From: Chiloscyllium plagiosum
Taxonomy: Eukaryota
Assembly: GCF_004010195.1 (NCBI RefSeq)
Contig: NC_057752.1
Coordinates: 10,138,247 to 10,202,246 of the forward strand
DNA: 64,000 nt
Direction of reading: 5' to 3'
Shown here: one piece after another, positions 57,760 to 62,669 of the stretch
Layout of the letters: every line of letters begins with the position of its first letter
How positions within the stretch are numbered: position 1 is the first letter of the stretch
Position numbers and translations under genes: made by a program
Notes under the pieces: generated by a model
Databases searched by the model: none
Seen by the model: only the letters and a program-made list of their open reading frames with translations
Told to the model about the DNA's origin: nothing

Positions 57760-57878
57760 GTGAGAAGCCATTCCATTGTGATGAGTGTGACATGAGGTTT
57801 ATTCAGAAGTACCATATGGAACGACACAAACGGACACATAGTGGAGAGAAACCATACCAGTGTGAATACTGCCTACAG
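57760..57878 (+). CDS. ZNF148: ZNF148-like coding exon 5 (119 nt, finger 3 and first half of finger 4: [40 protein letters not shown])
   Basis: Acceptor ttctttgatttcacag; donor CAG|gtactg, phase 1/0. YQCEYCLQ matches ZNF148. The exon completing finger 4 was not found in the window. Confidence 0.95.
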
Positions 57879-58324
57879 GTACTGTATTACAGGAGCAGCA
57901 TTACTACCATCCACAGTAACTATTCCAGGAGCAACCTGAATACTGATCATAACCTACAGAATTGCAAAACCAGCTAATATTGATTTTAAACTTTTGTATT
58001 ACAGTAACTATGTTACTGCTTAGTACAAGTTGCTGTATTACACAAAGTGTTAATACTGATCACAAGGGACTCTATTACAGGGACATGGATGACCTGCATA
58101 GAATCATAGAGAGCAATACCTTTTTAGATGAATTTCCCCTCCATAGCCAATGGAAATAAATTGGGAGACAATTTTTTTTCACTTTTTAAGGCTTTTGCTA
58201 TAACACAAACTAAAAATAATGTAGATTAAATGTTAATCAACAGGCAACCAATGCATCAAACTTAAGAAAGGTACTTTTGCATTAACTAAAATGATGGGGA
58301 TATCCCCCAAAGACACTCCCAACT

Positions 58325-58715
58325 CTGCAGTGCAGGTTGGGATCAAATACGGCACCAAGGTTGTGAACAGACTGGCTTAATCTTAGACTGTTGCCAGAGA
58401 GAGTGATGGAGTTGGGAGCTCGGGAACAGGGTTTGGAGTGGGGATTGAAAACAATGGCTTCAGTCTTCCTAGTATTTAATTGGAAGACATTTCTGCTCAT
58501 GCAGTACTGGGTGTCTGAAAAACAGTCTAATAATTGAGCAATAGTAAAGAGTTGTGATGATGGTAAGATAGACCTTGGTGTCACTAGCATACATGTGCAA
58601 ACTAATACTGTGCCTTCAGATGACCTCACTTGGGCAGCATATGGATGCAAAATAGAAGAGGACCATGTTAGATCATGGGGTCACCAGAAAGAACTGTGCA
58701 GGAGCAGGATGCAGT
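58325..58715 (-). mobile_element. L2 LINE RT fragment
   Basis: ORF 58282-58650 DTQYCMSRNVFQLNTRKTEAIVF...VHNLGAVFDP. Confidence 0.8.
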
Positions 58716-58854
58716 GTTAATGCTACCTAACTTTATGGTGAGCGGAATTTAGTTGATAATGCTGTCTTTTTGAGAAATTTGAGAGTCTGGGAAGTCGATT
58801 TCTTAACCTGGACTGTCATTTTCATGCAGCACTAAGGCTTTGTTACATTATCCA

Positions 58855-59140
58855 GTGGTGGCACTTTCCTGATGCAACACTGAACGCCTGCTTTCACAGA
58901 TGAACAGTAGAAAATCCAATGGTGCTACTTGATGAAGTGTGTGGAAGTTCTCTCACTATAAATATTCCTCCCTCAATCAGCCACACCAATAGCACGTTCA
59001 TTAATCAGTTATTTCATTTGTTGTCCATGCAGCTCTGCTGTGCTAAAATAAGCTTCCATTTTTACCAACATAACAGTTATTGAATTTAAGTAATAACTCT
59101 TGGAGTGCTAGGGCTGTCCTGAGGAGATGGTAAATAGGTA
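58855..59140 (+). mobile_element. Decayed DeuSINE (SacSINE1-like) fragment
   Basis: aaaatccaatggtgctactt..gaagttctc..aatattcctccctcaa..ctgctgtgc motifs. Confidence 0.5.
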
Positions 59141-60754
59141 TAAGAATGGAATTCCTGTTATGACTGCAGCTGCAAAGAAAGTACTGGTGCCATCTGTTCT
59201 GTTGCAGAAGTTGTGAACAGTGCGTGTAGACAATGACTAATAAGTCCAAATAATGCCGAGGGGCCCTGCATTATTACAGCAATGTCAATACTACCTTCGA
59301 GGATCAGTGTACTTCATTACAAACATACTATATTACAAGAGCAGTAGCAAACTAGCCTATAAGCAATGAGTATTGTCTGATGCTACTAAGCTATGGTGCA
59401 GTATTCATGTTGCAAAAGGTTTCAGTATTACACTAATATGGCTACAGTATAATACAGGAGCAGCTTAACATGTTGCACTCCAGGAGCTTGGAGTACAGCC
59501 TAACAACATTGCATTAGAAGAGGAAGATGAAAGCTGCCTGAACAAATTGTATTGCAGGAAAAAATGTCAAAACTACGCAAATACAGTATGGCATGCATTT
59601 TGAATAGCACCTATGAGTCTTACATTGTAGGAGCAATGCAAATAGAATGCACGGATCCTGTATTGCAGGAGCAATGCAAGTGGCACACGCAGGTCCTGTT
59701 TAACAGGAGCAATGTAAAAATCACTGACAGGTCCTGTATAACACGAGCAATGAAATGACACCTGCGAGTCCTGTATTACAGGAGCTTGTATGAAAGGTAT
59801 TACGTGAAAAACTACATACATACACTACGACGGAAACAATATGAAATATGCATAATGGTTCTGTATTACAGGAACAGTGCCTCTAGGATGTGTATTTCAG
59901 CAACAATGCAAATGTTGTCCATAGGGTTTGTAATAAAGCTGCAACAAAATATTTTCCGAATGTTCAGTATTAGATCTGTGATGCACACATTTCCTAAAAG
60001 TACAGTATTACTGCATCAAAAAAAAATCCCAAGGGTTCTGTATTACAACAGCAAAGTAACTATCGTCCAAAGATCCTGGATCAGAACAGAAATGCAAATA
60101 TTGCCACAAGATTCTGTTTTACAGCAGCAATACAAAAATTGCAAGAAGGTTTGATATTGGAACAGCAATGCAAATATGATCCAACAATACAGTATTACAG
60201 CAGTAATGCAAATATTGCTCAAAATCTGCCTTACAGATCAAAATAAATATTTGCAAATGGTTCTGTTTTACAGCAGTAAATATTGCCAAAACGTACCTTA
60301 CTATAGCAACAATGCAAGTATTGCTGAATGGGTCTGTAATATTGCAAAATGTAAAGAAAGAAGGTCCTATATCACAGCATCAGTGCAATCGTTGCCCTAG
60401 GCTCCCATATTACAGGAGCAGTGCAAATGTTGCCAAAATGTCTTGTGCTACAGCATCAAAGCAAATGTTATTCAGATACAGTATTACTGCAGCAGTGAAA
60501 ATATTGACTTGCAGCATAAGCGCAAATACTGTCAAATGGTTTTGTATCCTAACGGCAATGCAAATACTGCCAGAAAGGTCAGCACGACAGCAAAAATGCA
60601 AGTATTACCGAAAGGACCTTTATTGCAACATTAATGCAAATATTGCCAAAGATCTTGGGTTACATTAGCAGTGCATACATTACCCAAAAGTGCAATCCTA
60701 CTGCAGCAATGCACGCATTGTCCAAATCTCATGTATTCAGCAGCAATGAAAATA

Positions 60755-60961
60755 CAGTAGAACCCCTGTATCCGCGGATTTGGTTTCTGTGGTTTCAGTT
60801 ATCCACTGTTTACAGCAGCCCGAAAATATTACATGGAATACTCCAAAAATAATTCCAGGGTGCTGCCGGGGAGGTAAATGATAGGGTTTGCTCCTATCCG
60901 CGCTTTTGGCCATCCACGGTAGGTCCTGGAACGTATCACTCGCGGATACGGGGGGCACCTG
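60755..60961. mobile_element. Tigger-like (Tc1/mariner) MITE inserted in the minisatellite
   Basis: TA|cagtagaacccctgtatccgcg ... cgcggatacggggggcacctg|TA: imperfect TIRs and TA TSD. Confidence 0.8.
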
Positions 60962-62669
60962 TATTACAAATTAGTTCTGTATTACAGCTGAAATGAAAAC
61001 AGTGACAAATGGGACAATATTATAGCAGCAATGCAAGTATTGCCAAGTGGTACAGTATTCCAGCAGCAATGTAAATATTGTCCAAAGTTCCTATACTGCA
61101 GCAACAATTAAAATATTGCAAGATGGTTCTGTACTGCATTTGTAATGTGTGTATCACCAAAAAGTACAGATTTACACAGCACTGCAAATATTGCTAAAAG
61201 CTACCATATTGCAGCAGAAATGTATATATTGTCCTAAGTAACAGTTTCACAACAGCAGGAAGATATTGTCCAAAGGTAATGCTTTTCAACAGCAATATAA
61301 TTACTGTCAAAGCTTCTGTATCAAAACACCAATGCAAATATTGTTCAAAGGTGTGGCATTACAGGAGCAATGCAAGTAATGTCCAAATGTCCTATGGTAC
61401 AGCAGTGAATTAAATGTTCCTTATAGGTTTGATGTTGCCCAAAGCTGCAGAATTACAGCAGGATGCAAATTTTGCCTCAAGCTCCTGTGTTGCAGCAGTA
61501 AAGCACATATTGCCTGAAGATACAGTATTACAGCAGTAATGCTTATATGCTGAACAATTCTGTGTAACAGCAGAAATGCAAATGACTGACAGCAGCATAG
61601 CAACTATTGCCAGATGGCCTATATATCGTAGCAGCAGTTGTCCAACAAGCACTGCATTTGCAGTTCAATCTGAATAATTTTTCTATTTTGCATGACATTA
61701 CACAATATTATAGACATATTGCAAATATTACCTAAAGGGACTGCATTACAGAAACTGTACAGATACTACCTATCACTTCTGTACCAACTACAGCAGCAAT
61801 GCAAGCAATGCCTTCATTAAAGGAGCAACTGCCTATTGACTCTATATTTCAATTACATTGAGAATATTTTCTAAGGATACTTTATTCCATTATCAAAATG
61901 AATAATGCTCTTACTGTCATATTAAAGAAGCAATGTGTCTGCTGTCTACAGGCCCTCCGTTATTGGACTTGTGTGAATAATCCTTCCAGTACTAGATTAC
62001 AGGAGCAGTGTGAATACTACCTACAGGACCCTGTATTGGTGTAGTATTCTAAACAGTCTTTGCAATACTGTGTTACAGAATCATTGTACATTTTGCCTAC
62101 AGTTATTGTATCAAAGGAATATTGCTAATACTGCATAAATGTACTAAAATACAGCAACATTGTGACTGTGCCTATAGCTCCTGTATTACAGGAACAAAGT
62201 GAATGCTGCCCACAAGTATTTCACTTTACTGACAATAAGAATACTACTTACAGTTACTTTAACAGGAGAAGTGTGACATGATCCTGCAGGATTGCATTAC
62301 AATGACGATGATGTTTGCATCTTATAAAACATTATCTCTGAAAGTTGACCATGTTAAATATAATTGACTTATTCAGCATTATCAGTTCAAGGATACAAAC
62401 TGGTTCGTTGTGCTCCACCATTCATTTTCCTTTTGCTGTTGTTTAGCCACACATTTCTCAGGTAGGATTCATTAGCGCATGGCTATGATCAAAATAGCAA
62501 TTAGGGAACACTGTTAAATGTGGTTCTGTTGAATGGTACTGAAACTGAAGGCTTTTGGTCAATAATTATATCCTCGCTGCACTGAACATCCTGACAGTTG
62601 TGTATCTGAACTATTTGAACCCATACGTTTGTGTCGGAGAGGTGGTGTGTCAAATTATGGAATGGTTAC

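Follow-up and report, generated by a model that had tools for sequence, protein, structure and literature searches.

A decayed splice-junction minisatellite in a shark ZNF148-like gene with a deficit of intact donor copies

Introduction

Intron 5 of the ZNF148-like/znf740b gene of the shark Chiloscyllium plagiosum opens with a long series of decayed copies of the exon 5 donor junction. The questions raised by this locus are where the array came from, how old it is, and what became of the splice donors that were multiplied with it. Arrays of this class are already known from the human F7 and CBS genes and from the "mirage" minisatellites of amphioxus. The sections available of the human report describe the 37-bp VNTR of F7 intron 7 together with the minisatellites of the IFN-inducible 6-16, CBS intron 13, LMNB2 and PDGF intron 4 (PMC1557585), and those of the amphioxus reports describe mirages in Adh3, globin, troponin C and PGBD5 genes (PMC3087553, PMC3902484). 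According to the same sections, downstream donor copies are normally silent (PMC1557585, PMC3087553, PMC3902484). The window analyzed here is a stretch of 64,000 nucleotides that includes coding exons 3 to 5 and the array.

Results

The gene and its authentic donor

The features of the locus, numbered from the first nucleotide of the window, are as follows.

40235..40358, plus strand: coding exon 3
51915..51998, plus strand: coding exon 4 (84 nt), left out in many RefSeq isoforms
57760..57878, plus strand: coding exon 5 of ZNF148-like/znf740b, 119 nt long, which encodes finger 3 and the first half of finger 4
57858..57895, plus strand: putative founder unit of 38 bp, made of the final 21 nt of exon 5 and the initial 17 nt of intron 5
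57896..58081, plus strand: 5' block, five gappy decayed copies, AG|GT in none
58082..59246, no strand: interruption of ~1.17 kb, with a minus-strand RT-like LINE fragment and the stretch first labelled DeuSINE
58282-58680, minus strand: putative LINE fragment ORF, RVT_1 clusters at 0.93-0.94 in an atlas search
59247..59880, plus strand: Block B, irregular junction-type units, consensus 33/38 to the junction
59881..60754, plus strand: Block C, central-type units
60755..60963, no strand: MITE with terminal inverted repeats and a TA duplication, within one unit
60964..61640, plus strand: Block D, central-type units, home to the two pseudo-donors that have survived best (GT at 61276 and at 61351, 7/9)
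61706..62305, plus strand: 3' block, junction-type units, consensus 36/38, including the copy at 62006-62027

Exon 5 is bounded by AG upstream and GT downstream, and the peptide that it encodes ends in QCEYCLQ, which agrees with the coding content assigned to the exonic half of the unit by the initial annotation. Among the 49 proteins bearing QCEYCL, 48 have it joined directly to YFSRTDR; the first donor was used in these 48 and in the contig ends listed, and contigs from organism B, a 3%-diverged relative, likewise join exon 5 to exon 6 from the first donor. In all the RNA evidence seen the first donor is the one in use, and the array is probably inert today. This donor, at 57878/57879, is weak: it has 6 of the 9 consensus positions and lacks the +4A, +5G and +6T matches. 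Donors without those matches are expected to rely on -2A and -1G. The read-through frame of intron 5 meets a stop at 57975-57977. The gene was unmentioned in the one preprint searched for X-linkage.

Structure and period of the array

The decayed minisatellite comprises ~72-80 surviving units over 4.4 kb, and 67 of the 153 parsed segments are near-full units arranged head to tail and in phase with the donor. Self-matching over 59200-62310 reached 0.389 at lag 38, while 500-nt windows upstream of 57 kb gave a lag-38 baseline with a mean of 0.265, SD of 0.021 and maximum of 0.320; among lags 2-159 only 38, 75 and 76 exceeded 0.31. The proposed ~38-bp periodicity in phase with the exon end was thus recovered. 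Tandem Repeats Finder picked up no more than three short pieces of period 38, with 72-75% match, so the array is strongly decayed. A consensus learnt without the junction copy matched the exon 5/intron 5 junction at 32 of 38 positions (chance ~6e-11), the junction unit being 21 nt of exon plus 17 nt of intron.

The central and flank consensuses both retain AG|GT, and the flank consensus resembles the junction more closely (36/38) than the central one does (30/38). The drift of central units to another type that had been noticed earlier was found to involve 6-8 of the 38 positions. These units have a mean pairwise identity of 0.615 and decayed in a star-like manner. Columns 16-24 are the most variable of the unit overall. 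The decayed copies seen right behind the junction correspond to five gappy copies at 57899-58081 with a mean identity of 71%. At the other end, the segment at 62181-62220 is indeed a unit, rotated across two parsed units, 62158-62194, with 30/37 identity to the junction unit, and 62195-62232. The identity of 62006-62027 to 57858-57879 (21/22) and the unit end that precedes it (attacaggag) were verified. A special status for this copy was considered and rejected: a match this good is expected with a probability of 0.04-0.7, taking 11-25 junction-type copies at 70-80% identity.

Transposon insertions

The initial annotation described one array from 57858 to 62310 containing L2, DeuSINE and MITE insertions. 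The array stood, broken by the interruption at 58082-59246 and by the MITE; of the three elements the MITE was well supported and the LINE provided just an RT-like lead. When the MITE was removed in silico the empty site was exactly 38 nt long and in phase. The element, which we take to belong to the Tc1/mariner-type superfamily, was multi-copy in all three contig runs. A Pfam search with the LINE fragment ORF had no match; a multi-copy contig pile-up was observed at 58270-58617, within the interruption that bears it. The DeuSINE candidate (~58880-59150) had neither a second copy in the window nor a contig pile-up.

Origin of the array

Tetrapod ZNF148 has QCEYCLQ and an intron at the exact same point without the array, and only one of 59 read-through tails fits the 38-nt unit, that of the skate-like orthologue. 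The exon end is therefore older than the array. Together with the read-through ORFs of paralogues, which start with V (GT) at the same position, these observations support the earlier proposal that the junction seeded the array and not the reverse. They also weigh on the idea of a genome-wide satellite that inserted beside the exon and either resembled it by chance or supplied its end, a reading already disfavoured that we regard as extremely improbable. Against it stand the tetrapod gene, the single-contig depth of the array bins, when extra contigs stack on the LINE and the MITE, and the 64-kb window, in which no 38-mer outside the array scored above 24/38. There was no contig pile-up at 85% likeness indicating array copies at other loci, and no full unit was present among the rest-of-window segments listed (the first 20 of 31 on the plus strand and the first 20 of 37 on the minus strand).

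Age of the array

A skate-like transcript (protein P0049), when translated, enters intron 5, and its tail fits the tandem unit in phase with 95.5 bits (z=16); the next-best read-through among 59 reached 11.6 bits. The N-terminus of P0049 is 93% identical to a skate model and 71% to Chiloscyllium. The link is made at the peptide level by one translated ORF spanning five units. The in-phase fit of this transcript makes it probable that the array arose before sharks and rays split (~306 Ma), in which case it would be more than 250 million years old. The great age that had been suggested is also supported by the star-like decay and by the in-phase insertion of the MITE. A profile search with the skate-like tail against 1.84 billion proteins gave 3 matches, all unrelated repeat ORFs with -6.6 to -28.9 bits versus the unit. 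Neither two homologue searches (36 and 60 proteins) nor a second cluster look-up yielded further shark or ray read-throughs, and the homologue-search proteins included no chimaera orthologue.

An array born twice from a duplication-prone junction, separately in sharks and in skates, is very unlikely. The skate-like copies are more regular (up to 85%) than those of the shark 5' block (~71% identity), as a double origin could explain, but it would require the same 38-nt period, phase and 17 intron bases in both lineages. Organism B showed 73 differences over 2611 positions in mostly-array pieces and 55 over 1745 outside (P=0.52), and over 60778-62334 it had neither gained nor lost a whole unit; the organism A pieces listed had 0 differences and 0 gaps. 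No variation in copy number was seen in these two organisms, which represent few samples with incomplete cover.

Loss of AG|GT in the copies

AG|GT was retained in 5 of 62 copies against 12.5 expected from column permutation (P=0.00075), and was the sole tetramer among 35 with P <0.05. The loss reported for many copies is thus real and goes beyond chance. Copies with zero to four donor hits numbered 5, 36, 18, 3 and 0 (12.5, 25, 18, 5.7 and 0.6 expected), so that the loss follows a one-hit-then-neutral pattern. The variance ratio at the donor columns (0.55) was the lowest of 35, and just 2 of the 4756 random column sets drawn to match reached so low a value. The depletion persisted in four re-alignments, two of them with the donor columns masked (P=0.004-0.03), in gap-free units (3/29 versus 6.8 expected, P=0.015) and in an alignment-free count (7 versus 21.6+-3.9 in 601 simulations). 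A model in which intact copies are under-represented outperformed the neutral one (P=3e-4). Considered by themselves, the flank units did not reach significance (2/25 versus 4.1, P=0.12).

The expectation that the GT would be more mutated than its neighbours held for the +1 G (retained in 36/63 copies, 0.71 expected, P=0.01) and failed for the +2 T (50/65 versus 0.76); the depletion concerns the four bases taken together. Donor-like 9-mers with at least 7 matches were not depleted (7 versus 8.5 expected), good ones surviving at 61276 and 61351, and none of the 23 donor-like sites in the array is identical to the authentic 9-mer. In the skate-like protein, the residues of P0049 are compatible only with a broken AG|GT in each of its 4 downstream copies; forced changes were in excess at donor codons (5/7 versus 17/43), though not significantly so (P=0.12). 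Copies sharing a donor variant were slightly more alike elsewhere (P=0.086), so the independence of the copies is imperfect.

The pattern suggests that duplicate splice signals were weeded out over time. The main rival to selection is mutational: with the same origin and age, the donor columns would form a context-dependent hot spot, for example through template switching at the short inverted repeats of the unit, and the first change would erase the context. There are hints in this direction. Of the 15 differences listed between organisms A and B (60991-61410), five affect one of the four donor columns (P=0.016), and already broken copies account for four of these five; G>C at +1 occurred 10 times where ~2 were expected from the base spectrum, and this change would extend the short hairpin of the unit; and the donor columns lie in the generally variable stretch of columns 16-24. 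Against a hot spot, AGGA was not depleted in the flank units of the array (11/20 versus 8.9 expected), nor was AGGT/ACCT in a 9-copy interspersed repeat family (19/27 versus 18.7), a control of low power with three sites. Covariation was absent from the 16 hairpin pairs tested, and within AG|GT each of the six column pairs, those involving -2A and +2T among them, showed a negative association. On balance we consider a hot spot unlikely.

A regulatory role for the array

In one contig, the first 30 nt of exon 3 were joined behind exon 5, the arrangement expected of a back-splice. An array kept as a regulatory element, with repeated partial U1 sites or hairpins that delay the excision of intron 5 and promote both back-splicing and omission of the finger exons, would account for that contig, for the persistence of the array in shark and skate-like species, and for the RefSeq models that join exon 2 to exon 6 and lack the fingers (4 of 19 proteins, in four species, a skate among them). 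In addition, intron 5 begins with 17 bases identical to the junction-type consensus, an agreement expected of a decayed copy with P ~0.01-0.04, and contig depth, a poor measure, was higher in intron 5 than at the end of intron 4. We nevertheless judge this role improbable: divergence from organism B is the same as in the flanks, two insertions were tolerated, folding z ranged from -2.05 to +0.96 in 8 stretches, hairpin pairs did not covary, and donors are being lost rather than kept. As far as the accessible part of the source goes, human ZNF148 likewise yields a circRNA, made of other exons (PMC13449536).

A hairpin function was rejected; two changes in the central type look compensatory, yet the 16 pairs lacked covariation and folding was modest. 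BLAST found no inverted repeats between intron 5 (6 kb of which lie in the window) and the upstream introns at E 1e-5. A more elaborate version, to which we give still less credence, makes the array a splicing brake of more than 250 million years, whose degenerate donors would slow intron 5 and steer transcripts to an exon 3-5 circle and a finger-less linear mRNA. Such a circle would measure 327 nt, or 243 nt if exon 4 is skipped; one of its frames is free of stops and contains Met codons, which could allow repeated rounds of translation into a poly-zinc-finger protein.

Discussion

The explanation that we find probable is that of a frozen fossil splice-junction array whose pseudo-donors were removed by selection. 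In an ancestor common to sharks and rays, 38 nt lying across the exon 5 donor would have been copied in tandem, and the copies would have multiplied into the intron, presumably through unequal exchange and slippage. The middle of the array came to be occupied by a variant unit, with the junction type persisting at the edges; homogenization then ceased, transposons inserted and the copies decayed independently. Every new copy would have borne a donor equal in strength to the real one, and its use would insert 38n bases within finger 4, causing a frameshift or a stop. One change anywhere in AG|GT should be sufficient to disable a copy, since a donor without the +4A, +5G and +6T matches should depend on -2A and -1G. 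Selection would then have favoured the first change in each copy and nothing beyond, a plausible cause of the one-hit pattern observed.

As in the F7-type arrays, the first monomer spans the exon-intron boundary, the donor is repeated into the intron and the unit length is similar; the upstream donor, used in F7, also serves in the 48 proteins and the contig ends listed here (PMC1557585, in the part available). The same text gives F7 as having 5-9 units with identical functional pseudo-donors and a polymorphic length (PMC1557585). The shark array differs in its size, its pairwise identity of ~61%, its interruption by transposons, the destruction of most of its donors, the lack of unit changes versus a 3%-diverged relative and its apparent presence in both sharks and skates. 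It shares with splice-junction minisatellites the boundary-spanning first monomer, the in-phase copies and the donor in the consensus; in the strict F7 sense, with pseudo-donors identical to the authentic one, it does not belong, given that AG|GT survives in so few copies. The amphioxus mirages, in the portions at hand, are also tandem copies of exon-intron boundaries in which AG/GT is not present in all, splicing is normal and the edges escape homogenization, as seen here in the flank and central consensuses (PMC3087553, PMC3902484). Mirages are young and unstable, with 3-6 units at 81-100% identity in BflGb6 and somatic instability in Adh3, and neither a test for selective loss of donors nor sharing between deep lineages is described in those portions (PMC3087553, PMC3902484). 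A literature search that left most subscription journals outside returned no paper on this locus, and no junction minisatellite common to such distant lineages or with selective donor loss. Age and donor purge, as read from the sequences, thus appear to be the two points that go beyond the published accounts found.

The array offers a natural long-run test of whether silent donors are also harmless, with dozens of replicate pseudo-donors derived from one known ancestral sequence. The one-hit loss of AG|GT suggests that they carry a cost sufficient for selection, even kilobases away from the exon. If the skate link is true, this would be an unusually old recognizable minisatellite, which, set beside the younger arrays of this genome, may allow the birth, freezing and purge of such repeats to be followed through time.

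Results

The initial annotation described the start of intron 5 of the ZNF148-like gene as a 38-bp minisatellite whose unit is the exon-5 junction, and this reading was correct overall: the feature is real. The two reference features are:

57760-57878, exon 5
60755-60963, MITE with terminal inverted repeats and a TA duplication

Autocorrelation of the array reached 0.389 at lag 38 over a background of 0.265 (SD 0.021). A circular profile was seeded with one central unit and trained on 57896-62420, hence without the junction copy, and its consensus agreed with 57858-57895 at 32 of 38 bases (chance ~6e-11). 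The parse yielded 153 segments, 67 of which were kept (at least 30 aligned positions); fragments, segments starting in 58100-59240 and those from 62320 on were left out. Array content was 2,751 nt (~72 units) in a stricter parse and 3,046 nt (~80 units) with looser block bounds. The consensus of the flank units at the array edges (n = 29) resembled the junction at 36 of 38 positions and that of the central units (n = 38) at 30 of 38, which confirmed that the latter have drifted. Since neighbouring central units, with 61.5% pairwise identity, were no closer to each other than distant copies, homogenisation of the array has stopped.

Five coding exons of the gene lie within the window and exon 6 beyond it. 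The first of them, translated, showed 100% identity with "zinc finger protein 148-like" from Chiloscyllium plagiosum and C. punctatum. The clusters that contain these proteins also include catshark proteins named znf740b, putative orthologues. Among P0018, P0019 and P0025, the models of the gene in Rhinoraja are named RACGAP1, and a CSAD model from Heterodontus falls in the same cluster; RACGAP1 and CSAD are neighbours of human ZNF740. This naming hints at orthology, and perhaps at the HoxC-bearing X chromosome. The portions available of PMC10620051 and bioRxiv 2025.02.26.637739 contained nothing on X-linkage of this gene. Exon 2 includes a 27-nt coding tandem repeat (22026-22102), whose 9-residue unit varies in number among sharks and rays. 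Many shark and ray isoforms, and likewise both skate-like Logan ORFs, omit exon 4 (51915-51998, second finger) without loss of frame. In RefSeq models P0001, P0002, P0006 and P0018, which come from two Chiloscyllium species, Stegostoma and Rhinoraja, exon 6 follows exon 2 directly; they miss the 109 residues of exons 3-5 and have no complete zinc finger. Other observations were open frames overlapping on both strands of intron 3 (50766-51077, 103 and 82 codons, repeat origin not obvious), a young 35-bp tandem repeat (47665-47767, 2.9 copies, 97%) and a tandem duplication of 339 bp (6578-7196, 92%).

QCEYCLQ, the end of exon 5, also occurs in tetrapod ZNF148, and where genomic ORFs read through the exon end in genes of the ZNF148, ZNF281 and ZNF740 types, V comes first at the same point; exon end and intron position therefore predate sharks. 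Only one of 59 read-through tails of at least 10 residues fitted the tandem unit (95.5 bits; second best, 11.6). An old exon end combined with a single fitting tail argues that the coding junction seeded the array, as proposed initially, and not the reverse.

The fitting tail belongs to P0049, a Logan ORF that clusters with a skate model. Identity over its N-terminus is 93% with the Rhinoraja protein, 79-83% with other rays and 70-74% with sharks. It consists of exons 1, 2, 3 and 5, spliced, followed by 56 residues of intron 5; these keep step with the unit while its frame shifts from copy to copy, cycling through all three, which is what a 38-nt period demands. The fit had z = 16 against 1,000 shuffles and z = 14 without the first unit. 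This one peptide, spanning five units and compared at the protein level rather than in skate DNA, suggests a single origin of the array prior to the shark-batoid split, ~306 Ma (252-387 Ma) in the text available of PMC3692497. Together with the identity of the central units, it supports the claim that the array is old.

On a short time scale the array is frozen. Contigs labelled organism B carried 73 differences over 2,611 bases of mostly-array sequence (five pieces) vs 55 over 1,745 bases elsewhere (three pieces; P = 0.52), groups that are impure, one taking in the MITE and another the 5' block; the only indels were small. In organism C (run X4, labelled apart from organism A), each of the three locus pieces listed, of 120, 239 and 205 nt, had 0 differences.

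Two insertions interrupt the units. The segment 58082-59246 is non-array and multi-copy in contig runs; a minus-strand ORF inside it gave a reverse transcriptase (RT)-like match in the atlas, a lead only, and no match in the Pfam search. Removal of the MITE leaves an empty site that restores one 38-nt unit in phase, so the MITE, correctly placed within the array before, was inserted after the array existed.

At 6 of 9 positions the authentic donor agrees with the donor consensus given in PMC1557585. Among single donor columns of the copies only +1 G was low (36/63, P = 0.01), and -2, -1 and +2 were not significantly so; the expectation that GT is mutated more than its neighbours thus held for +1 but not for +2. 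The loss of AG|GT from many copies was borne out: all four bases survived together in 5 of 62 units, where the same columns predict 12.5 (P = 0.00075). AG|GT was the sole tetramer below 0.05 among 35 compared, and units with exactly one donor hit numbered 36 vs 25 expected. The deficit persisted after each of four re-alignments and when only units free of gaps were counted (P = 0.004-0.029), and an alignment-free count found 7 vs 21.6 expected; two controls, both small, showed no comparable deficit. The P0049 residues force a -1 change in copies 2-4 and a deletion across the donor in copy 5. Selection has probably removed AG|GT from the copies, but strong donor-like 9-mers overall were not depleted (7 vs 8.5), flank units alone were not significant (P = 0.12) and lineage sharing among copies was borderline, those with a donor variant in common having slightly more variants in common elsewhere (P = 0.086). 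Moreover, of the 15 organism B differences listed for 60991-61410 (among 40 listed rows of 131), 5 fell in donor columns, mostly in already broken copies. Intron positions +3 to +17 (57881-57895) are identical to the junction-type consensus and agree with the skate-like peptide, while copies average 70-75%. Constraint on the intron start beyond the donor is possible (P ~0.01-0.04).

QCEYCL proteins continued with YFSRTDR in 48 of 49 cases (56 examined, mostly predicted models). The contigs of runs X1, X2 and X4, only guessed to be RNA, have exon-bounded loose ends; of the 18 listed (98 further), none lay at an array unit. In X2, 57878 was joined to exon-6 sequence. One X1 contig runs from it instead into exon 3 (from 40235, 30 bases), a back-splice. 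A circular RNA of the finger exons is likely; a tandem duplication or a library artefact could also produce such a join. Exons 3-5 add up to 327 nt, or 243 nt when exon 4 is left out, and read in a circle they have a frame free of stops. Human circZNF148 is made from exons 4-5, according to the accessible text of PMC13449536. Nothing here links the back-splice or the finger-less models to the array, which appears to be inert at present.

Discussion

The accessible part of PMC1557585 describes minisatellites of F7, 6-16, CBS, LMNB2 and PDGF that begin with a unit straddling a donor, and it shows the F7 pseudo-sites to be functional yet unused. The shark locus works like the F7-type arrays within this broad class, but a strict VNTR has identical pseudo-donors and variable length, and the shark array, in the few samples covered, shows neither. 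Amphioxus mirages are young and unstable, as far as the text available of PMC3087553 and PMC3902484 goes. The class of array is therefore already known; what is new is the probable great age of this array and that its copies have lost the donor core to a measurable extent.
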